From NCBI GenBank assembly GCA_036229005.1, contig JAZAMN010000071.1, forward strand, positions 64,001 through 128,000: a stretch of 64,000 nucleotides of DNA. Reading direction: 5' to 3'. Shown piece by piece: positions 366 to 54,422 of the stretch; the first letter of the stretch is position 1, and every line of letters starts with the position of its first letter. The notes below the pieces were generated by a model. The model did no database searches. It was given only the letters and a program-made list of their open reading frames with translations, and had not been told where the DNA came from. This DNA comes from Myxococcota bacterium (lineage in GTDB: Bacteria > Myxococcota_A > UBA796 > CAJQPC01). The position numbers and the translations under genes are program-made.

Positions 366-1105
366 CAGAAGCCCTGGAAGCTGGCGACGTCGTTCAGGTA
401 CAGGAAGCGGCGGCTGGCGGCGGGCACGTGGCCCATCCCGCAGCCGATGGCCACGCTGGTCTCCACGCCCTCCACGTGGGTCCCGCAGCCCCCGGCGATG
501 GCCCAGTGGGCGCCGGGGGGCGGCTCGTCGATCAGCTTCGCGCGGACGGCCTGCGCCGCGGTGACCTCGACGGGGCCCAGATCTGCCAGCAGGGGTCCGA
601 GCACCCCCTCGATCGCGATGGTGTTCCCCGCGATCTTCAGACGCACCCACTCCTCGTGCTTCTCCCCATAGAAGCCCTCATCGCCGTAGTCGGGCCGGTT
701 CGGGGGCGGCGCGGGCAGGGTGACGTTCAGGACCTTGGCGGCCTCGGGGGCCTGGGGGTCCACCCACACGAACCACGCGTCGTCGGCGGCCTTGATCCCG
801 GGCACCAGCTTCCGCAGGTCCGCGACCGTCGCGCACACGACCTCCACCTGGGACAGGGGCGCGAGCTGGGCGTCGCTGGCGTTGTTCAGCCACTCGCCCA
901 GCACCTGCCCGCGGGGCCACTTGTCGCCGTCGTCGGGGGGGATCACCAGCACCAGCAGGGGCACCTTGCGCTCGGCAGCGCTGCGCCAGGCGTTGGAGAG
1001 GGCGGCGCGCTGCTCTTTGGGGGAGCCGGAGGCCCAGGCCGTCGGGGCGAGCGCGGGCAGCGCGGCCAGGCCCAGAGCGCTGCGGAGGAGCTGTCGGCGG
1101 TTCAT
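365..1105 (-). CDS. Tat-signal exported hypothetical protein with C-terminal GGCGxH..GCGMGH motif
   Basis: MNRRQLL twin-arginine signal with AWA cleavage site; coupled to both neighbours by stop/start overlaps. Confidence 0.8.
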   Translation of the reverse strand: MNRRQLLRSALGLAALPALAPTAWASGSPKEQRAALSNAWRSAAERKVPLLVLVIPPDDGDKWPRGQVLGEWLNNASDAQLAPLSQVEVVCATVADLRKLVPGIKAADDAWFVWVDPQAPEAAKVLNVTLPAPPPNRPDYGDEGFYGEKHEEWVRLKIAGNTIAIEGVLGPLLADLGPVEVTAAQAVRAKLIDEPPPGAHWAIAGGCGTHVEGVETSVAIGCGMGHVPAASRRFLYLNDVASFQGF

Positions 1106-2034
1106 CGGATCTCCAGGTCCATCAGGTCTTCCAGGCGGCGCAGGGTGTGCTCCGGGGACTCCAGGCTACCCGCGACCGAGCGCCGCAGGCTCATCACCGG
1201 CCCCTCGGCCCCCGCGTAGAAGTGCACCTGCCCGGCCTCGTCTTCCACAAAGAAGCCGCGCAGGCTGGTGCCGTCGCTCCAGATCAGGCGCAGGCTCCCG
1301 TCGGCGGCCAGCTCGTAGCGGTGTCCCTCTCCGTCCTGGTAGAAGCCCACCAGCAACGGATCCACGCCCAGGCTGCCCGAGCGGATGCTCAGGGTGTCGC
1401 CGCTCAGGGTCAGCGAGTGGGAGGAGGAGGCAGTGCTGGCGGCCCCCGAACCCGTCGTCCTCAACGTCTCCAACTGGATCTGAGCCCCCACCTCCAGCGC
1501 CCGCGGCGACGGCGAGGACACACTGGCGCGCTCCGCGAGCAGCCCCTGGGGCGTCTGGGCGAGCTCCAGGGGGAACAGCGCCTCGACCTCGGGCAGGGCG
1601 GGGTCGGTGAGCAGCTCCCACAGGCCGGGGGTGCGCAGCCACAGGCCGTCGTCGTCGGGGCTGCCCTGGATGCCCAGCTCGGCGGCCAGCGCTTGGGCCT
1701 GATCCCCCTGGACCAGGGCGGCGTCGGGGTCCAGATCCAGCCCGAAGGTGCCGGTCTCGGCCAGCAGCTCCTCGCCGTCGAGGTAGATCTGCAGGAGCTC
1801 GTCGGGGTCGGGGGTGAAGCGGTGATCCTGGCCATCTGGGCCCACCACCCAGGCCTCCTCGTCCCCAAAGACCTGAACGGGCAGGCTGGAGTCCACGAGG
1901 ACATCGCCCAGCTCCAGGACCACCCCCCGCTCCACGGCCTCGGGGCCCAGGATCACCACGCCGGGGGCGTCCTCGGGGGGCGCGCAGGCGGCGAGCGCGA
2001 GGGTCAGGGGGGCGGCGATCCAGGCTCGGGACAT
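1102..2034 (-). CDS. Hypothetical lipoprotein
   Basis: Start re-placed at MSRAWIAAPLTLALAAC (lipobox LAAC) with upstream GGAG; acidic mature part. Confidence 0.7.
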   Translation of the reverse strand: MSRAWIAAPLTLALAACAPPEDAPGVVILGPEAVERGVVLELGDVLVDSSLPVQVFGDEEAWVVGPDGQDHRFTPDPDELLQIYLDGEELLAETGTFGLDLDPDAALVQGDQAQALAAELGIQGSPDDDGLWLRTPGLWELLTDPALPEVEALFPLELAQTPQGLLAERASVSSPSPRALEVGAQIQLETLRTTGSGAASTASSSHSLTLSGDTLSIRSGSLGVDPLLVGFYQDGEGHRYELAADGSLRLIWSDGTSLRGFFVEDEAGQVHFYAGAEGPVMSLRRSVAGSLESPEHTLRRLEDLMDLEIR

Positions 2035-5825: not shown

Positions 5826-6719
5826 ATGCAGTGGAACTCCCTCCCCATCATCGCCTTCGACACCGAGACCACGGGCCTGAGCCCCTTCGCGGGGGACCGC
5901 GTCATCGAGTTCGGCGCCGTGGTCCTGCACGTGGGTCGGGACGGCCGGGTGGCCAAGGTCGAGAAGCACGACTTCCTGTTCAACCCGGGGATCCCCATCC
6001 CCCCCAAGGTCGTGCAGCTCACAGGCATCGACGACGCGATGGTCGCCAACAAGCCCCCCTTCGAGGACCTCGCCATGAAGGTGCGGCAGCTCCTCACCGG
6101 CGGGATCTGCGTGGCCCACAACTACGCCTTCGACCGCAACTTCATCTCCGAGGAGTTCCGCCGCGCCGGCCTGGCCTGGCCCGACCCCATCGGAGAGGTC
6201 GACACGGTGGACCTCTCCATGCGCATGTTCCCCGAGGCCCGCTCGCACAAGCTCTCCGAGCTGTGCAAGCGCCTGGACGTGGACCTGGACAACGCCCACC
6301 GCGCCACCGACGACGCCGAGGCCTGCGGCCGCTGCTTCGTCGAGCTCACCCGCCGCCGCGAGGCCCCCGGGGAGCTCCACGGCATGCTGGACTGGGCCGA
6401 CGCTCTGGGCCACCCCCCGGAGAACGAGTGGATGGGCCTGGGTCCCCGGGGTCAGGTGATCTTCCTCAAGGGCGACTACGAGGGCCAGCCGGTGGAGCAC
6501 CACCCCAAGCACCTGCACTGGATGACCATGGCGCGCGTCCGCGAGGGCGGCCGCTGGGCCTGGCGCTACCCGGAGTCCCTGCGGCGCTGGGCGGAGCGCT
6601 GCCTGCGGGTGCGCTCCTCTGGCCGGGCGCGGCAGAACCCCAAGAGCTTCGGACCGGGCGACTGGACCATCGACAGCAACGCCCTGCTGATCACCCAGGA
6701 CCGCGGGCGCGCCTCCTGA
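5826..6719 (+). CDS. DEDDh 3'-5' exonuclease (DnaQ/Pol III epsilon-like) with C-terminal extension
   Basis: ExoI FDTETTG, ExoII AHNYAFD, ExoIII HRATDDA. Confidence 0.9.
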   Translation: MQWNSLPIIAFDTETTGLSPFAGDRVIEFGAVVLHVGRDGRVAKVEKHDFLFNPGIPIPPKVVQLTGIDDAMVANKPPFEDLAMKVRQLLTGGICVAHNYAFDRNFISEEFRRAGLAWPDPIGEVDTVDLSMRMFPEARSHKLSELCKRLDVDLDNAHRATDDAEACGRCFVELTRRREAPGELHGMLDWADALGHPPENEWMGLGPRGQVIFLKGDYEGQPVEHHPKHLHWMTMARVREGGRWAWRYPESLRRWAERCLRVRSSGRARQNPKSFGPGDWTIDSNALLITQDRGRAS

Positions 6720-42640: not shown

Positions 42641-43570
42641 ATGATCGAGGTATCCGAACTCACCCGCTACTACGGCCGCCACGCCGCGGTGCGGGACCTG
42701 AGCTTCTCCATCCAGGATCGCGAGATCGTTGGCTTTCTGGGCCTCAACGGCGCCGGCAAGTCCACCACCCTCAAGGTCCTCGCCGGCCTGCTCCTGCCCA
42801 GCTCCGGCACTGTGACGGTCGACGGTGTGGACGTGGTGAGCGCGCCCGACTCCCTGCGCGCCCAGATCGGCTTCCTCCCGGAGGACGCCCCCCTCTACAA
42901 GGACATGCGCGTCCGCGACTTTGTGCTCCACGTCGGCCAGCTCAAGGGCATGAGCGCCGCCCAGGCCGAGGCCCGCGTCGACGAGGTCCTGGACCGCTGC
43001 GGCCTCGCCCCGCGCGCCCGCCAGGTCATCTCCGAGCTCTCCCACGGCTACCGCAAGCGCGTCGGCATCGCCCAGGCCATCATCCACCAGCCCAAGCTGG
43101 TCATCCTGGACGAGCCCATCTCCGGCCTGGACCCCCTCCAGATCCGCGAGATCCGCCAGGTCATCCGCGGCCTCAAGCAGGACTGCACCGTCCTGATCTC
43201 CAGCCACATCCTCTCCGAGATCTCCCAGACCTGCGACCGCATCCTGGTCCTCAAGGACGGCCAACTGGTCGCCGAGGGCACCGAGGATGAGCTCGCCGCT
43301 CGCCAGTCCGGTGGTGGCAGCCTGAGCCTGGAGATCCGCGGTGACCAGGCCCGGGTCCAGCAGGTGCTCGAGGGGCTGGAGTCCGTCTCTTCGGTCTCCG
43401 TCCACACCGTCCAGGACGGGGTGGTGCACTGCAGCGTGCAGCTCAGCTCCGACACCCGCGAGGACATCGTGGCCGCGATCGTGGCCGCCGGCCTGGGCCT
43501 GCGTCGCCTGGACGACGGGGACGCCGAGCTGGAAGAGATCTTCGTGAACCTCACCCAGGGGAAGAACTGA
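42641..43570 (+). CDS. ABC transporter ATP-binding protein (GldA-like)
   Basis: GLNGAGKST, LSHGYRKRVG, LDEP and SSH motifs. Confidence 0.95.
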   Translation: MIEVSELTRYYGRHAAVRDLSFSIQDREIVGFLGLNGAGKSTTLKVLAGLLLPSSGTVTVDGVDVVSAPDSLRAQIGFLPEDAPLYKDMRVRDFVLHVGQLKGMSAAQAEARVDEVLDRCGLAPRARQVISELSHGYRKRVGIAQAIIHQPKLVILDEPISGLDPLQIREIRQVIRGLKQDCTVLISSHILSEISQTCDRILVLKDGQLVAEGTEDELAARQSGGGSLSLEIRGDQARVQQVLEGLESVSSVSVHTVQDGVVHCSVQLSSDTREDIVAAIVAAGLGLRRLDDGDAELEEIFVNLTQGKN

Positions 43571-44295
43571 TGCGCGGCTTGATCCTGGTCGCCAAGCGCG
43601 AGCTGGGGGCGTACCTCAACACCTCCATGGGCTACGTCATCGTGGCCATCTTCCTGATGCTGGAGGGCCTCTTCTTCAACGCCTTCGCCGTCGGGAGCAG
43701 CCCCAAGGCCAGCGCGGATGTGCTGTCCGACTTCTTCTACTTCTCCTTTGGCTGCACGGTGGCCGCGGCGGTGTTCCTGAGCATGCGCCTGATCGCCGAA
43801 GAGCGGCAGACCGGCACCATTGTGCTGGTGCAGGCCAGCCCCCTGGCCAACTGGCAGCTCGTGGGCGGCAAGTTCCTGAGCGTGCTGGTGCTGCTGGCCG
43901 TGATGATGCTCATCTCCACCTACATGCCGGCCCTGATCTTCGTGAACGGCAAGGTCTCCCTGGGCCAGATTGGCGTGGGCTACCTGGGCGTCTTCCTGGC
44001 CTCCGCCAGCGCCGCCGCCATCGGCACCTTCGGCAGCACTCTCGCCCGCAGCCAGCTCGTGGCCGTCATCATCTCCGGCGTCATCGTGGTCGCCCTGCTG
44101 CTGGCCTGGCTGCTCGGCCGGGTCACCGACCCGCCCCTGGACGAGGTCTGGTCCTACCTGAGCCTCTACGACCGCCACTTCCAGCCCTTCCAGAAGGGCC
44201 GCCTGAACACGGAAGACGTGGTGTTCTACCTCTCCATGTGCTTCGGCTTCCTGATGCTCTCCACCCGGACCCTCAGCGCGCGGAGGTGGAAGTGA
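43570..44295 (+). CDS. ABC-2 type permease (GldF-like)
   Basis: 6 TM segments; MRLIAEERQTGT..GKF motif. Confidence 0.9.
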   Translation: MRGLILVAKRELGAYLNTSMGYVIVAIFLMLEGLFFNAFAVGSSPKASADVLSDFFYFSFGCTVAAAVFLSMRLIAEERQTGTIVLVQASPLANWQLVGGKFLSVLVLLAVMMLISTYMPALIFVNGKVSLGQIGVGYLGVFLASASAAAIGTFGSTLARSQLVAVIISGVIVVALLLAWLLGRVTDPPLDEVWSYLSLYDRHFQPFQKGRLNTEDVVFYLSMCFGFLMLSTRTLSARRWK

Positions 44296-46157
44296 GCCCC
44301 GCAGCCATCCTGACCCTGGGCTCTCTGGCCCTGATCTTCGTCGGCCAGCGCCTGCTCACCGACACCACCGGCCTGGTGGTCTCCCTGGTGGGCGCCGCCG
44401 GCCTGGTCGCCGCCCTGGTCCTGCGCGTGCAGGCCCGCGGAAAGGCCGCCCACCCCAGCACCGCGGACGCCCACAAGCGCGCCTTGTTCCTGGGCATCGG
44501 CGTGCTGGCCTCCATGGCGCTCTACACCCTGAGCACCGACTGGTTCATCGACCTGGCCGGCCTGCAGGATGAGGCGGCGAGCCGCTGGCAGGTGGTGTTC
44601 TACGCCCTGTGGCCCATCGTCCTGCTCTGCTCCGCGGCCCCCCTGATGCTGCTGGACAGCGCCATCGAGGACAGCCCGCTGGCGGTGCAGCCCCTGCGGG
44701 TCAAGCACGCCGTGGACAACGGCCTGATCGCCGCCCTGGGCGTGAGCCTGCTCTTCCCGGTGAACTACCTGGCCAGCGAGCACAACGAGCGCTTTGACCT
44801 CGCCTACTTCAAGACCACCGAGGTTGGAGGGGCCTCCGCGGCGATCGTTGAGAGCCTCAGTGAGCCCGTGCTGGTCCGCATCTTCCTCCCCACCTCCTCG
44901 GACGTGGAGCCCGAGCTGCTGCCCTACTTCGAGCAGCTCGCCGCCCTCAACCCCGAGCACTTCTCGGTGCAGGTCATCGACCACGCCGCCGAGCCCGCGC
45001 TGGCCGAGAGCCTCAAGGTGCGCGACAACGGCTACGTCGCCCTGACCATGAACCCGGACACCGAGTCCGAGGTCACCAAGTCCTGGAAGATCGGGACCGA
45101 CCTGGACAAGGCCGAGCGCAACCTCAAGAAGCTGGACGAGGAGTTCCAAAAGCGCATGCTGGACCTGGCCAAGGGTGAGCGCATCGCGTACTTCACCGTC
45201 GGCCACGACGAGCTGAACTGGAAGGGCGGCGAGCTCCCCGAAGACAAGCTCAGCCAGCTCAAGACCGGCCTGCGGAACCTGAACTTCAAGGTCAAGGAGC
45301 TGGGCCTGACCCAGGGTCTGGGCAACAGCATCCCCGACGACGCCAGCGTGGTCGTGGTCATGGGCCCCAAGACCGCGTTCCTGCCCGCGGAGCTCCAGGC
45401 CCTCCAGGACTACCTGGCCCGCGGCGGCTCGGTGCTCATCGCGGTGGAGCCCGGCTCGGACGAGATCGCCGGCCCCCTGCTGGCCCCCCTGGGCGCCAAG
45501 CTCGGCCAGGGCACGCTGACCAGCGACAAGCCCGCCTCCTACATGACCCGCAACCGCAGCCTCTCGGACCGCCAGAACACGGTCACCAACCGCTACTCCA
45601 GCCACGAGAGCACCACCACGCTCTCCAAGTACAGCCGCCAGCTCCAGCTCATCACGCCGCGCGCCGGCTTCCTGGAGGAGGCCACCCCCGGCATCGCGGG
45701 CGCCAAGACCACCGTCACCGTGCGCAGCCTGCAGGACAACTGGGCCGACCTGGACGGCGACTTCGAGCTGAACCCCGCCACCGAGAAGCGCGAGGTCCGG
45801 CCCATCGCCATGGTCGCCACTGGCCCCGCCACCGCCGCCTCCCCGGAGGACCCCGAGGCCCCCGCCGAGTTCCGCGCCGTGCTGGTCGCCGACGCCACCC
45901 TCTTCTCCGATCTGGCCCTGGCCAACCAGGCCAACTCCGTGTTCGTGGGCGACGCCCTGAACTGGCTGCTCGGCGACGAGGAGCTCTCCGGCACCACCGA
46001 GTCCGAAGAGGACGTCAAGATCGAGCACACCAAGGATGACGAGGTCCTGTGGTTCTACGGCAGCTCCCTGGGCGTGCCCCTGATCCTGATGCTCCTGGGT
46101 CTGCTCCGCGTGTCCCGCCGCCGCAAGGACAGCACCGTCCTTCGGGAGGAGGTCTGA
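44292..46157 (+). CDS. GldG family ABC transport auxiliary component
   Basis: N-terminal TMs; YFTVGHDE, IPDDASVVVVMGPK and DALNWL motifs; C-terminal TM. Confidence 0.85.
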   Translation: MSPAAILTLGSLALIFVGQRLLTDTTGLVVSLVGAAGLVAALVLRVQARGKAAHPSTADAHKRALFLGIGVLASMALYTLSTDWFIDLAGLQDEAASRWQVVFYALWPIVLLCSAAPLMLLDSAIEDSPLAVQPLRVKHAVDNGLIAALGVSLLFPVNYLASEHNERFDLAYFKTTEVGGASAAIVESLSEPVLVRIFLPTSSDVEPELLPYFEQLAALNPEHFSVQVIDHAAEPALAESLKVRDNGYVALTMNPDTESEVTKSWKIGTDLDKAERNLKKLDEEFQKRMLDLAKGERIAYFTVGHDELNWKGGELPEDKLSQLKTGLRNLNFKVKELGLTQGLGNSIPDDASVVVVMGPKTAFLPAELQALQDYLARGGSVLIAVEPGSDEIAGPLLAPLGAKLGQGTLTSDKPASYMTRNRSLSDRQNTVTNRYSSHESTTTLSKYSRQLQLITPRAGFLEEATPGIAGAKTTVTVRSLQDNWADLDGDFELNPATEKREVRPIAMVATGPATAASPEDPEAPAEFRAVLVADATLFSDLALANQANSVFVGDALNWLLGDEELSGTTESEEDVKIEHTKDDEVLWFYGSSLGVPLILMLLGLLRVSRRRKDSTVLREEV

Positions 46158-47248
46158 TGAACAAGCAAGTGCTCCTGCTCGGCGGACTGCTGGGCCTGGC
46201 CCTGGTCGGCTCCTACATGAGCTGGACCTCCGAGGACGCCGCCGCCGACCGCGAGGGTGTGGTCCTGCTGGACGCCGCCCCCGAGCAGCTCGCCGGGGTG
46301 CTGTGGACCAGCGAGAACCTGGACGTCGAGATCAGCCGCCGCTCCGACGCCCTGGGCGACTACCTGTGGGTCAAGACCACGGAGAGGAAGGAGGTGGAGG
46401 TCCCCGTCGAGCCTGTGGAGTCCACCGCTACAGTGGCCCCTCCCCCCGAGCCGGGTGTGGATCCTGCCGCAGGCGAGGACACCGAGTCCGGATCCGAGCC
46501 CTCCGAGCCCGAGGTCGAGGTCGAGATCCGCACCACCATCACCGAGTTCAAGGCCGGCCCCACCGGCGACGAGCTCTTCGCGTCCCTGGCCCCGATGGTG
46601 GCCCAGCGCCGCCTGGATGTAGGCGCCGACCGCTACGCCGACTTTGGCCTGGAGAGCCCGGAGGCCACCCTCCAGGTCCAGCGGGCCGGCAAGGAGCCCA
46701 AGGCCATCCAGATCGGCGGCAGCGCCTACGGCACCCGCGACCGCTACGCCCTGGACGGCGAGACCGTCGTGCTCCTGGACCAGGAGATGCTCCGCCCCCT
46801 CAAGTTCGCGACCACCCGCCTGCCGGACCGCGAGCTCTACGGCGTGGAGACCCCCGACATCGCCGGCGTGCGCATCGAGGGCGAGGGCGTGCAGCTCCAG
46901 CTCCAGCAGCTCAACGCGGACGACGCGCGGAACGCCGGCTGGGCCTACGCGGGCCAGGAGGCCGCCGAGACCGACGAGTCCGCGGGCGCCTGGATGGCCA
47001 AGGCCCTGGGCCTCAAGGCCAAGAACTACGTGCAGGCCGACAACGCGCCCGTGAGCACCACCCCGGTGCTCACCCTGGAGCTGGCCGTGGAGGGCGGGGC
47101 CCCCCACAAGGTGGAGATCCTGCAGGGCACGGACCTCGCTGGCGCCGAGCAGTGGTACGCCCGCTCCAGCCACACGCGGGAGCTGGTGGTGCTCCACGAA
47201 GCCCAGGCCAGCGAGCTCGTCGCGGACCTCCCTGCGCTGGTCCCCTGA
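46157..47248 (+). CDS. DUF4340 domain protein
   Basis: N-terminal TM, YADFGLESPE motif; usual fourth gene of GldA/F/G operons. Confidence 0.75.
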   Translation: MNKQVLLLGGLLGLALVGSYMSWTSEDAAADREGVVLLDAAPEQLAGVLWTSENLDVEISRRSDALGDYLWVKTTERKEVEVPVEPVESTATVAPPPEPGVDPAAGEDTESGSEPSEPEVEVEIRTTITEFKAGPTGDELFASLAPMVAQRRLDVGADRYADFGLESPEATLQVQRAGKEPKAIQIGGSAYGTRDRYALDGETVVLLDQEMLRPLKFATTRLPDRELYGVETPDIAGVRIEGEGVQLQLQQLNADDARNAGWAYAGQEAAETDESAGAWMAKALGLKAKNYVQADNAPVSTTPVLTLELAVEGGAPHKVEILQGTDLAGAEQWYARSSHTRELVVLHEAQASELVADLPALVP

Positions 47249-51461: not shown

Positions 51462-52282
51462 AGGTCCACCGGCTGAGCGTCCGGGGCCGCCAGGTCCTCC
51501 TCCGCGAGCAAGGCCAGGGCGCCCCGCTGCTGCTCCTGCACGGCGTGCCCACCTCGTCTCTGCTCTACCGCAACTGCATGGGCCCCCTCGCGGACGCCGG
51601 GGTGCGTGCGCTGGCCCCCGACCTGCCCGGCTACGGCGCCTCCGAGCACATCGACCATGATCTGAGCGTCGACGCCCACCTGGACTGGCTGGAGGCGCTA
51701 CTCGATGACCTCGCCTGCGGGCCGGTGCATGTGGCGGGTGTGGATCTGGGCGGGTTGCTGGCGGTGGGCCTGACTTTGCGCGGCCGGACGCGATCCCTCT
51801 CCCTCACCAGCACCGCCATCGGACCGGGCTGGATGCCGGCACAGCTCACCGCGATGCCCGGCCTGGAGCTCTTCTTCTACCGGCTCTACGGCGGGCGCCT
51901 CTGGCTGCGTCAAGGCGTCGCCCCGGAACGCGTCCCCGCCCTGTTGGCCCTCCACAGCCCCCGCCTGGAGTCCGACCCCCAGTTCACCGAGCGCATGCGC
52001 CGCACCGCCCTGGCCTTCTCCTGGCGCCACTGGGCCCGCTGGCCCCAAGCACTGGCCGCCAGCCCCGTCCCAAAGCAGCTCATCTGGGGCAGCGAGGACC
52101 GCTTCTTCAGACCCTGGGTCGCCCAGCGCATCGCGGCGTCTCTGGGCTGTCCGCTCCACTGGGTCCAAGGGGGCCGGCACCACCTGCCATTCGGTCGGCC
52201 CACCGCCTGGACCCAGCAGGTGCTCGCGCTCATCCGCGATCTCCCCGCCAGCGAGGTCACCAGGGCCCAGACCACCCCCTGA
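51458..52282 (+). CDS. Alpha/beta hydrolase (haloalkane dehalogenase/epoxide hydrolase-like); probable CTG start
   Basis: GQGAPLLLLHGVPTSS, PDLPGYGAS and GVDLGG motifs; homology-like sequence extends upstream of the ORF-track GTG to a CTGA overlap with the gloB stop. Confidence 0.8.
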   Translation: MKVHRLSVRGRQVLLREQGQGAPLLLLHGVPTSSLLYRNCMGPLADAGVRALAPDLPGYGASEHIDHDLSVDAHLDWLEALLDDLACGPVHVAGVDLGGLLAVGLTLRGRTRSLSLTSTAIGPGWMPAQLTAMPGLELFFYRLYGGRLWLRQGVAPERVPALLALHSPRLESDPQFTERMRRTALAFSWRHWARWPQALAASPVPKQLIWGSEDRFFRPWVAQRIAASLGCPLHWVQGGRHHLPFGRPTAWTQQVLALIRDLPASEVTRAQTTP

Positions 52283-52286
52283 AGGA

Positions 52287-52320
52287 GAAAACCTCCGCCT
52301 GGAAAATCCCAAGCGGAGGT
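52287..52320 (-). terminator. Intrinsic terminator on the minus strand
   Basis: Minus strand ACCTCCGCTTGG-GATTTT-CCAGGCGGAGGT followed by TTTCT; both flanking CDS are on the plus strand. Confidence 0.75.
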
Positions 52321-52454
52321 GCGGTCGTCTGGGAGTCTTTGGGGACCCGTCTCCAGGTCCAGCGGGCACCGAATCGCTGCCGACACCGGGGAATTCCGAT
52401 GCCGGATCCCCAGGGCCTCTCTTCCCTGGGACCCAAGTCATCCCTGACTTGCGA
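52287..52454 (-). ncRNA. Candidate sigma54-dependent multi-hairpin small RNA
   Basis: Bounded by a perfect -24/-12 promoter and a minus-strand terminator; five local hairpins, several with G-U pairs favouring the minus strand; no ORF closes before the terminator. Confidence 0.65.
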
Positions 52455-52464
52455 AATCCATAAG

Positions 52465-52480
52465 AGCAAGGCCCGTGCCA
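52465..52480 (-). promoter_or_regulatory. Sigma54 (-24/-12) promoter
   Basis: Minus strand TGGCACG-GGCC-TTGCT, an exact consensus match. Confidence 0.75.
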
Positions 52481-52520
52481 ACTCGGTGACGCCCAGAACA
52501 GGGGCTCTGCGGGCAGCGCG

Positions 52521-52540
52521 CTGAGACAAGTTTGTCCCAG
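52521..52540. promoter_or_regulatory. Candidate enhancer-binding-protein site
   Basis: CTGAGACAAGTTTGTCCCAG, 16/20 palindromic, centred ~76 bp upstream of the predicted sigma54 TSS. Confidence 0.45.
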
Positions 52541-52605
52541 TGGGGGATTCAGATCCCGGCCTTCAAGCCCCCCCGAGATGATCCGTTGTGGCGGGTGGAG
52601 GTTGC

Positions 52606-53595
52606 ATGGAAGCCCTGGCTCAAGACCTGCGCGCCGAGATCTGCGCCCTGCTGGCGCAAGGACCGGCCGATCTGCGCGGGCTGGACCTGGTGCGCGCGGA
52701 CCTCTCGGGGCTGGACCTGTCTGGCTGCGACCTCCGGGGCCAGGACCTGTCGCAGGCCACCCTGCGCGGCGCGCGGCTGATCAAGGCCCAGCTCCAGGAC
52801 GCCGTGTTCTTTGAGGCCGACCTGCAAGAGGCGGAGCTGCTGGGGGCCGACCTGAGCGGCGCGGATCTGCACCAGTGCAGCGCGGCCCGGGCGGGCTTCG
52901 GCCAGGCGAACCTGCGTGAGGCGGACCTGTCGGGGGGCGACTTCTCGAACGCCAGCTTCTCGGGGGCGGACCTGGAGCAAGCGACGATGAGCGGGGCCGA
53001 GCTCAAGGGTGCCCGGATGGTCGAGACCCGGCTGGCCCACGCCGACTGCAGCCGGGTGGACTTCGAGGGGGCCGACCTGAGCCGCAGCGAGGTCAGGGAC
53101 GCCCGCTTCCGCGAGGCCGACATGCGCCGCGTCCGCTTCACGGGCGTGCGCGGCTACGAGGAGGCCGACTGGATCCTGGTGGACATCCGCCAGGCCGACT
53201 GGCGCGGCGCGGCGCTGATGTGGCGGCACATCCTGGACGAGAACTACCTGTGGGAGTTCAAGCACCGCTCCGACAGCCACCACGCCACCTACATGATCTG
53301 GAAGCTGACCTCGGACTGCGGACGACGGCCGCTGCTGTGGGGGCTGTGGACGGCGTTCATCGCGGTGGTGTTCGCGGGGATCTACGAGGGGCTGGCCATC
53401 GACTACGGCGCCCACGAAGCGCCCCTGTCCAGCCTCTACTTCTCGATCGTGACCCTCACGACCCTGGGCTTTGGGGACGTACTCCCCGCCGACGGCTGGG
53501 CCCAGGCCGCCGTCCTGGCCGAGGTCGTGCTGGGCTACGTGATGCTGGGCGGCCTGCTGAGCATCTTCGCCAACAAGATGGCCAGGAGGGCCTGA
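52606..53595 (+). CDS. Pentapeptide-repeat protein with C-terminal two-TM K+ channel domain
   Basis: A(D/N)LxG repeats; SLYFSIVTLTTLGFGD selectivity filter. Confidence 0.9.
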   Translation: MEALAQDLRAEICALLAQGPADLRGLDLVRADLSGLDLSGCDLRGQDLSQATLRGARLIKAQLQDAVFFEADLQEAELLGADLSGADLHQCSAARAGFGQANLREADLSGGDFSNASFSGADLEQATMSGAELKGARMVETRLAHADCSRVDFEGADLSRSEVRDARFREADMRRVRFTGVRGYEEADWILVDIRQADWRGAALMWRHILDENYLWEFKHRSDSHHATYMIWKLTSDCGRRPLLWGLWTAFIAVVFAGIYEGLAIDYGAHEAPLSSLYFSIVTLTTLGFGDVLPADGWAQAAVLAEVVLGYVMLGGLLSIFANKMARRA

Positions 53596-54422
53596 TGTTC
53601 GCCGCGCTGCGCAAGACCCTGTTCGGGGACCCCCGCGAGAAGCTGCTGGATGCCCTGGGTGAGGCCCCCATGCCCACCTTTCCCCAGGTCGCCAACGCGG
53701 CCCTGGACAAGCTGCGGGACCCGACCAGCAGCCTGCGGGACGTGGGCCTGATCCTGGAGCAGGACCCGGGCCTGAGCATCCGCCTGCTCAAGACGGTGAA
53801 CTCCCCGGCCTTCGGCCTGCGGCGGCCCTGCACCTCGGTGGCCCATGCGGCCTCGTTGATGGGGCGGGCCCAGCTCGAGTCCATGGTGCTGGCCGTCGCG
53901 GTCAACGCCGCGACCCCCAAGAAGGCCCCGGGCTTCAACCGTCAGCAGTTCTGGCAGGCGGCCGCCCAGCGCGCGGCGGTGGCCCGCTCGATCGCCGCCG
54001 CGATCTCCCCGCGCTTTGCCAGTGAGGCCTTCACGGCGGGCCTGCTGCAGGACATGGCCGTCCCCCTGCTGGCGGCGCGGCGCAGCGACTACGCCCCGGT
54101 GCTGGAGGCCTGGCGCGGCGGCGAGGGCAGCCTGGACGCGCTGGAGCAACAGGCCTTTGGCTGGGACCACGCCGAGATCGGCGGCCTGCTCGGCGAGCGC
54201 TGGGAGTTCCCGGCCGGGCTCAAGGCGGCGGTGTCCGACCACCACGGCGTGGACGCAGATCCCGCGGTCGGCGTGGTGGCGCTGATCGGCGAAGACGGGG
54301 TGGACTCGGAGAAGGTGATCGAGCAGGCCCACGCGCGCTTCGGGCTGGCCCACGACGTGGTGGACAAGGCCATCCAGGAGGGCTCCGAGCAGGCCCAGAC
54401 CCTGTCGGCCCTGTGGACCTGA
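53595..54422 (+). CDS. HDOD domain protein
   Basis: PTFPQV, DPGLSIRLLKTVNSPAFG, AGLLQDMA and DHAEIG..RWEFP motifs. Confidence 0.9.
   Translation: MFAALRKTLFGDPREKLLDALGEAPMPTFPQVANAALDKLRDPTSSLRDVGLILEQDPGLSIRLLKTVNSPAFGLRRPCTSVAHAASLMGRAQLESMVLAVAVNAATPKKAPGFNRQQFWQAAAQRAAVARSIAAAISPRFASEAFTAGLLQDMAVPLLAARRSDYAPVLEAWRGGEGSLDALEQQAFGWDHAEIGGLLGERWEFPAGLKAAVSDHHGVDADPAVGVVALIGEDGVDSEKVIEQAHARFGLAHDVVDKAIQEGSEQAQTLSALWT

Follow-up and report, generated by a model that had tools for sequence, protein, structure and literature searches.

A previously unannotated non-coding RNA gene lies on the minus strand of the window, the 64,000-nucleotide stretch of DNA from a Myxococcota bacterium analysed here, and, judged from its sequence, it is very probably a genuine gene transcribed from a sigma54 promoter. 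It represents a real RNA family that is restricted to its lineage and folds unusually: a long closing helix is predicted to gather four hairpins into a five-way junction. The explanation favoured for its function, with a probability of roughly 0.45, is that of a trans-acting, enhancer-induced regulatory RNA that would pair with target mRNAs, independently of Hfq, through the invariant loop of its P4 hairpin. Few regulatory RNAs are known for the myxobacteria and their relatives, with the literature consulted centred on Pxr and the candidate MXnc1 in an Hfq-less lineage, and the RNA described here constitutes a second sigma54-driven family there, unrelated to Pxr. As a resource, it offers a junction supported by covariation, an enhancer motif that has been defined, some 40 naturally occurring variants, and natural gains or losses within a single genus. 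Together these allow RNA regulation without a chaperone to be tested in a lineage about which little is known.

The components of the locus are listed in Table 1. The transcription signals noted in the initial annotation were all recovered: an exact TGGCACG-N4-TTGCT promoter at 52480-52465 of the minus strand, a U-tailed terminator with a 13-bp stem at 52320-52291, and an upstream palindrome at 52521-52540, which is present with one mismatch. Of the five body hairpins it had drawn, four recur in the predicted fold as P2-P5, whereas the first is absent, and instead of five separate hairpins the fold has P1 closing P2-P5 into a junction. The predicted folding energy of the RNA body is -88.9 kcal/mol (z -4.13), with none of 200 shuffles equally good. 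Minus-strand open reading frames of 90 and 247 amino acids span the unit, with stops only past the terminator, and no small open reading frame is conserved among the homologues of the RNA. The central proposal of a new enhancer-controlled sigma54 small RNA is strongly supported, since the promoter, the dyad upstream of it, the fold and the terminator are all conserved. No metatranscriptome contig from three sets covered positions 51500-53500, a result that is uninformative either way regarding expression.

Table 1. Features of the RNA locus and its surroundings, in window positions, with the two 1.6-kb RNAs found elsewhere in the genome
Feature	Position	Strand	Remarks
Non-coding RNA gene, ~165-170 nt, five-way junction plus terminator	52287..52454	-	single copy in genome
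Sigma54 -24/-12 promoter	52465..52480	-	exact TGGCACG-N4-TTGCT; conserved in all homologues examined
Predicted +1	near 52454-52452	-	placed by standard sigma54 spacing
Proximal enhancer-like dyad, TG(G/C)GRC-N6-GYC(C/G)CA	52522..52539	.	11/12 positions match
Weaker distal dyad	52541..52557	.	9/12 positions match
P1 5' arm	52432..52448	-	contains the 'CsrA hairpin' of the initial annotation
P2 hairpin, length and loop variable	52408..52431	-	two-sided changes in 4/4 core pairs
P3 hairpin, ~10 bp, loop starts AAU	52380..52405	-	loop U invariant in 39/39
P4 hairpin	52360..52379	-	stem 100% paired; two-sided changes in 3/4 pairs
P4 loop	52374-52365		invariant GUGCC, usually UCGGUGCC; candidate seed or recognition loop
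P5 hairpin, 6 bp, GAGA tetraloop	52344..52359	-	tetraloop invariant in 39/39
P1 3' arm, junction-closing	52327..52343	-	own-versus-swapped-arm energies
Intrinsic terminator, U tail	52287..52320	-	13-bp stem at 52320-52291
Alpha/beta-hydrolase gene, convergent, just downstream of RNA	51545..52282	+	context only
Pentapeptide-repeat/ion-channel-domain gene, divergent, upstream of promoter	52606..53595	+	context only
GldA/GldF/GldG-like ABC operon with DUF4340 gene	42641..47248	+	context; RNA 5 kb beyond operon end here
1.6-kb non-coding RNA copy	C8:~97313-98925 = L305:~414-2025	+	
1.6-kb non-coding RNA copy	C24:~183778-185345 = L306	+	

The same unit recurs in related bacteria. BLAST searches of 61 genomes identified 13 relatives with the same layout, and an exact pattern for the core matched 15 of 185,579 species genomes, all of them metagenome-assembled; the RNA-bearing lineage, with a GC content of 70%, is probably myxobacteria-like. 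When 151 genomes of the order were searched with a covariance model built from 17 bodies, from which the promoter had been excluded, 22 copies scoring at least 68 bits were found in 21 genomes, and the next match scored 28 bits. These carriers comprise this genome, 13 of the 21 others of its family, and 7 of the 22 genomes of family f5, with the RNA found in none of the 107 genomes of the order's five other families. A sigma54 box was situated 24-29 nt upstream of all five held-out genome copies, which had played no part in training, and of none of 11 weak matches (nine of the 14 found across the order, and two in this genome). Likewise, a pattern scan of metagenomes returned 33 matches, and a sigma54 box preceded the core by 105-120 nt in all 23 of those scoring at least 67 bits, four of which repeat genome copies, and in none of the other ten. 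A second model, applied to 151 genomes of the class and 151 of the phylum, detected nothing new: the best other match scored 34 bits, and none of ten weak loci from the phylum had the promoter. As scoring in these class and phylum searches was confined to 18 candidates per genome, very divergent copies may have been missed. The viral contigs searched contained no match.

No known family accounts for the RNA. Rfam had no match to the window at the gathering threshold, only five chance matches to the RNA stretch (E 2.6-9), and none to ten homologue loci at E up to 1, consistent with the claim that the RNA is new. No description of it was found among the papers listed by literature searches. Conservation in relatives and covariation also speak for the proposed gene, its fold, promoter and terminator being kept across two families. 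In one genome, G105, the RNA occurs as tandem copies (L062:537-708 and 872-1047), each with its own dyads, promoter and terminator. In another, G002 (L002/L049), a tandem repeat of approximately 45 nt is found just 3' of the RNA's terminator.

Comparison of the homologues supports a predicted five-way junction in which every helix covaries. Across 39 distinct sequences, in an alignment fitted to the structure by the covariance model, 93.2% of cells were paired and 33 of the 41 pairs exhibited two-sided changes; none of 500 shuffles reached this level, and slid controls achieved 38-47%. An unfitted MAFFT alignment still gave 84.2% of cells paired, with two-sided changes in 28 of the 41 pairs. 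The arms of P1 paired at -22.9 kcal/mol with their own partners, versus -13.7 +/- 4.1 kcal/mol when swapped, the own partner being the best in 19 of 40 cases, and the median z over 41 homologues, excluding the terminator, was -2.9. All 39 sequences have the same U in the P3 loop, the same basal C-G pair in P4 and GUGCC in its loop, as well as the GAGA loop and a C-G pair of P5, and the lengths of P3, P4 and P5 were nearly fixed. The top covarying columns were the predicted pairs, with no loop-loop covariation or pseudoknot among them, and GUGCC had no covarying partner inside the RNA. An alternative fold, pairing the P1/P2 junction with the P4 loop, was rejected for want of covariation. Opening the terminator would cost 23.7-36.9 kcal/mol in all 37 copies mapped (of 39), and some terminator tails are weak, as only 23 of the 37 have at least four U in the first eight tail nucleotides.

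The promoter belongs to a set that is distinctive in this genome, in which the exact sigma54 motif occurs 25 times, versus zero or one occurrence for each of five controls, these being wrong-spacing or reversed versions of the motif. The gene rpoN, which the initial annotation had named with csrA and hfq as one to look for, is present alongside 23 sigma54 activators. Upstream of the promoter, the dyad matches at least 10 of 12 positions in 39/39 homologues; it matches at least 11 in 32/39, versus 3/65 sigma54 sites of this genome, a contrast inflated by the derivation of the motif from those same homologues. Tandem dyads approximately 20 nt apart are frequent, and the proximal dyad is likely the binding site of a sigma54 activator. 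Two other promoters of this genome share the dyad, one driving a peptidoglycan-binding/CHAP protein and the other a lipoprotein with a carboxypeptidase-regulatory domain, while relatives contribute seven further examples, mostly before exported or lipoprotein-like genes, one of them an amidase. From these genes we infer that the dyad-bearing promoters have a common activator, controlling an envelope or export regulon. A sigma54 activator was encoded in the fetched neighbourhood of the RNA in only two of the 21 carriers, and these neighbouring activators, in G051 and G091, were rejected as the cognate regulator, the two not being orthologues.

The surroundings of the gene bear on whether it acts in cis or in trans. 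In 10 of the 21 carriers the gene immediately downstream of the RNA, in the same orientation, is gldA; an M14 peptidase gene often precedes the RNA, and this site, upstream of the Gld-like ABC operon, is likely its ancestral location. Such a position, and the attenuator-like order of promoter, folded domain and terminator, would suit a cis-acting leader of the operon, either a riboswitch or an attenuator. Against this highly improbable reading, the RNA is kept intact before convergent genes, both here and in G011, G019, G066, G079 and G091; no antiterminator exists within 23.7 kcal/mol; a TTGAC-type -35 box, seen by eye, separates the terminator from gldA in seven of the ten; and the operon is present in 141/151 genomes, mostly without the RNA. 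As the RNA is not always 5' of a same-strand gene, and has no alternative antiterminator, it is unlikely to be a riboswitch. In 39 operon-flanking regions from RNA-less genomes there was neither a match to the model nor a promoter followed by the core, and the RNA behaves as an independent gene, gained or lost together with its promoter. Action in trans is indicated by the convergent neighbours, the tandem copies with their own promoters, and the terminator that is hard to open. The RNA has the gene features expected of a trans-acting small RNA driven by sigma54 and a bEBP: a conserved -24/-12 promoter, a likely activator site, its own terminator, no conserved open reading frame, and independence of flanking genes, in a host that possesses rpoN and sigma54 activators. 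At this locus, the divergent gene (52606-53595, +) encodes pentapeptide repeats and an Ion_trans_2 channel domain in one protein, and is followed by a stand-alone HDOD gene (53595-54422, +).

The initial annotation had suggested that the RNA may be a sponge for a CsrA/RsmE-type protein, an idea that is hardly tenable, as it fails on structure, conservation and gene content. The resemblance to CsrB, RsmY and RsmZ consists in a small intergenic RNA with a terminator and, in this copy, several GGA triplets. The hairpin claimed to present a CsrA-binding loop has a pair probability of at most 0.003, and forcing it costs 4.3 kcal/mol; its sequence instead supplies the 5' arm of P1, the long closing helix. 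The counts of eight GGA and two CANGGANG are correct; however, none of the eight GGA is fully unpaired. Eight GGA is unremarkable against dinucleotide shuffles (mean 6.9, p 0.35), versus p 0.006 against mononucleotide shuffles. In favour of a sponge, two CANGGANG are unusual for this copy (p 0.004), but they are not conserved: CANGGANG is present in 5/41 homologues, and ANGGA is absent in 21/41. Similarly, csrA was found in 11/21 carriers, but also in 34/130 RNA-less genomes, and it was not found in the other 10/21 carriers, among them this 94%-complete genome, where the annotation would have it sought; for partner genes in draft genomes, 'not found' is no proof of absence. The RNA therefore differs from the CsrB/RsmZ type in its paired and unconserved GGA, in having no loop-exposed, conserved ANGGA, in its host, in which CsrA/RsmA was not found, and in a csrA distribution that does not track its own. 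Within the family, csrA was not found in genus g1 (G000-G003), G007 or g5, and was found in 17/21 other members.

Parallels are also provided by other sigma54-dependent RNAs. CrcZ is a decoy RNA transcribed by sigma54, and Qrr is an enhancer-dependent sigma54 small RNA. GlmY is a sigma54 decoy RNA for RapZ (PMC7073468, PMC4152352). The RNA described here resembles these three in being an enhancer-dependent sigma54 small RNA, and the genes sharing its dyad are also envelope-related; it differs in that rapZ was found in only 1/151 genomes, that hfq, sought at the suggestion of the initial annotation, was not found in this genome, and that Rfam was unmatched. Identity with GlmY/GlmZ was rejected on the scarcity of rapZ and the missing Rfam match. 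The nearest comparison by lineage is Pxr of Myxococcus xanthus, a 108-nt RNA of three stem-loops adjoining the gene for its activator, pxrR (PMC5684412, PMC5568312, PMC11928866), and dependent on the loop of its first stem-loop, SL1, for function (PMC5684412). Both are small RNAs with a sigma54 promoter and an enhancer upstream of it, and both occur in Hfq-less hosts from a myxobacterial lineage, occasionally as tandem paralogues (PMC5684412; PMC5568312; bioRxiv 10.1101/2025.09.11.675593), whereas the present RNA is approximately 165 nt long, forms a predicted closed five-way junction, and mostly has no adjacent activator. The Pxr model RF01812 did not match the RNA stretch at E up to 10, or ten homologue loci at E up to 1; a search for the Pxr family over the phylum returned no matches, controls included, and is uninformative. 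Identity with Pxr was rejected, since RF01812 was unmatched and the RNA is not a molecule of approximately 108 nt with three stem-loops directly downstream of pxrR. The RNA belongs to none of Pxr, GlmY, CrcZ and Qrr, though it shares with them the enhancer-controlled sigma54 mode.

Structural RNAs with paired ends were also compared. YrlA and 6S RNA both have their 5' and 3' termini joined in an extended, bulged helix. In addition, YrlA possesses a domain of several arms and is driven in Salmonella by a sigma54 promoter; 6S RNA is a rod with a central bubble. The ends of the present RNA are likewise predicted to pair as a long stem. No tRNA-like T-loop consensus was visible in its alignment and Ro60/TROVE was found in 0/5 carriers, and on these two grounds identity with a Y RNA was rejected. 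A separate 6S RNA was found in 13/21 carriers, which, with the fold and the RF00013 result, led to rejection of 6S RNA or a replacement for it; 6S RNA was not detected in G000, G001 or G003. RNase P RNA was present in all five genomes searched for it. A mimic or binder of tRNA 3' ends was discarded, as only one tRNA of the genome ends in the loop complement.

According to the favoured explanation, in which the RNA pairs with mRNAs, one of the 23 sigma54 activators would bind the tandem dyad, and would turn on the RNA together with the exported and envelope genes that share the dyad, including the peptidoglycan-binding/CHAP protein, the amidase and lipoproteins. The rigid junction and GAGA hairpin would hold the (U)CGGUGCC loop open, leaving it free to initiate pairing with GGCACCG close to ribosome-binding sites, a role resembling that of the first loop on which Pxr depends. 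That a loop of 5-8 nt is invariant with no internal partner suggests a contact in trans, and in the Hfq-less M. xanthus both Pxr and MXnc1 contact mRNAs near the Shine-Dalgarno sequence (bioRxiv 10.1101/2025.09.11.675593). Within the family, GCACCG occurs in the short leaders of four of the seven other same-dyad promoters, three times beside a Shine-Dalgarno-like stretch, an observation made post hoc and among genes some of which are perhaps related to each other.

Genome-wide counts gave little sign of such targets. The leaders of this genome's two same-dyad genes contain no GCACCG site, the 8-mer complementary to the loop was found 20 times in 5' regions of this genome against 21 expected, and GCACCG before a Shine-Dalgarno and ATG ranked 13 of 60 permutations. 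Following sigma54 promoters, GCACCG was counted 17 times in seven carriers of f5 versus 35 in 15 non-carriers, and 18 times in 14 carriers of f1 versus 3 in eight non-carriers, a modest excess; these tallies include at least one self-match. The best target site in the genome, of 13 nt before the gene at C24:230362, was rejected, since it is kept in none of the ten other carriers checked, among 30 of 81 orthologue loci read. That gene (C24:230362-230646, +, equal to L156:5363-5644) encodes a 94-amino-acid protein with no Pfam match that is conserved in 81/151 genomes. An 8-nt site in glmM was uninformative as a target, being dictated by the FGTDG motif of the protein. Moreover, a simple seed explains the distribution of invariant bases over three arms less well than would a tertiary fold or a protein site.

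It is this distribution that lends substance to a different model, close behind the favoured one in probability, in which the sigma54-induced RNA would bind a protein, as a decoy or as the core of a ribonucleoprotein, its compact junction bringing the G[GAGA]C hairpin, the P4 loop and the invariant U in the loop of P3 together as a binding surface. Invariant residues on three arms and the nearly fixed lengths of P3, P4 and P5 are consistent with such a surface, as is the failure to find a conserved mRNA target, and sigma54 decoy RNAs are known in GlmY/RapZ (PMC7073468, PMC4152352). In addition, nowhere in the genome is the G[GAGA/GUGA]C hairpin as dense as in two other sigma54 non-coding RNAs, each of 1.6 kb. 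However, large folded RNAs often contain GNRA loops with a G-C closing pair, and therefore the hairpin shared with these 1.6-kb RNAs may reflect folding only. Nor does any known partner track the RNA (csrA, hfq, rapZ at 1/151, or Ro60/TROVE at 0/5 carriers), and each molecule offers a single site, unlike multi-site sponges. A more ambitious version, which is improbable, would make this RNA the first known representative of a group of sigma54-induced RNAs with tertiary folds that, in a myxobacterial lineage, operate independently of Hfq, CsrA, RapZ and Ro60, and would have it bind a protein via the G[GAGA]C hairpin that the 1.6-kb RNA also has. If true, the small RNA would belong to an undescribed RNA-protein regulatory system.

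The 1.6-kb RNAs are two paralogous non-coding transcription units outside the window, each with a sigma54 promoter at its start and an intrinsic terminator at its end, and possibly represent a new class of large non-coding RNA. The two copies are 73% identical, 57 of the 59 gaps between them are not multiples of three, and neither had an Rfam match. They contain five and four G[GAGA/GUGA]C hairpins respectively, compared with 0.1 expected per 1.6 kb, making them the two densest clusters in the genome. BLAST found homologues in 5/10 relatives, and they occur in families f4 and f5 (L266, L267, L285-L290). A 40-nt core of the RNA matches contigs of other organisms, approximately 87% alike, in 3/3 marine metatranscriptomes, at depths of up to 4,747. 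A partnership in which the small RNA would bind or regulate the 1.6-kb RNA through its P4 loop and GGCACCG(A) sites seems a remote prospect. Two 9-nt stretches in one of this genome's copies match the loop (two GGCACCGA against 0.1 expected), and the homologues of the large RNA in f4 and f5 begin with GCGGCACCG, but these 5' sites came from searching for that very motif, and the second copy here is without any loop-match site. Furthermore, the best duplex energies are no better than those of random 1.6-kb windows (p 0.5 and 0.86), and the large RNA is also present in G001, G003, G024 and G030, all of which are without the small RNA.

Further features of sigma54 transcription were observed in these genomes. 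An exact sigma54 box at C19:33997 (-) (L154:~5983-5998), on the opposite strand approximately 35 nt upstream of the start of rpoN, suggests autoregulation of rpoN or an antisense transcript. A second dyad, CRCGAC-N6-(T)GTCGYR, precedes four sigma54 promoters (C50:61796 (-), C66:7947 (+), C11:249830 (-) and C42:903 (-)), one of which drives a group-2-like sigma70 factor. In family f7, genes that on a reading of their sequence resemble those for single-stranded-DNA-binding proteins lie behind sigma54 promoters (L296 and L297, from G077 and G129). Finally, the sigma54 promoters at C74:46224 (+) (L307) and C11:249830 (-) (L308), neither with an open reading frame call or an Rfam match for the stretch that follows, are succeeded by short stretches that fold strongly and close with a terminator-like hairpin, these stretches being candidates for further sigma54 small RNAs.
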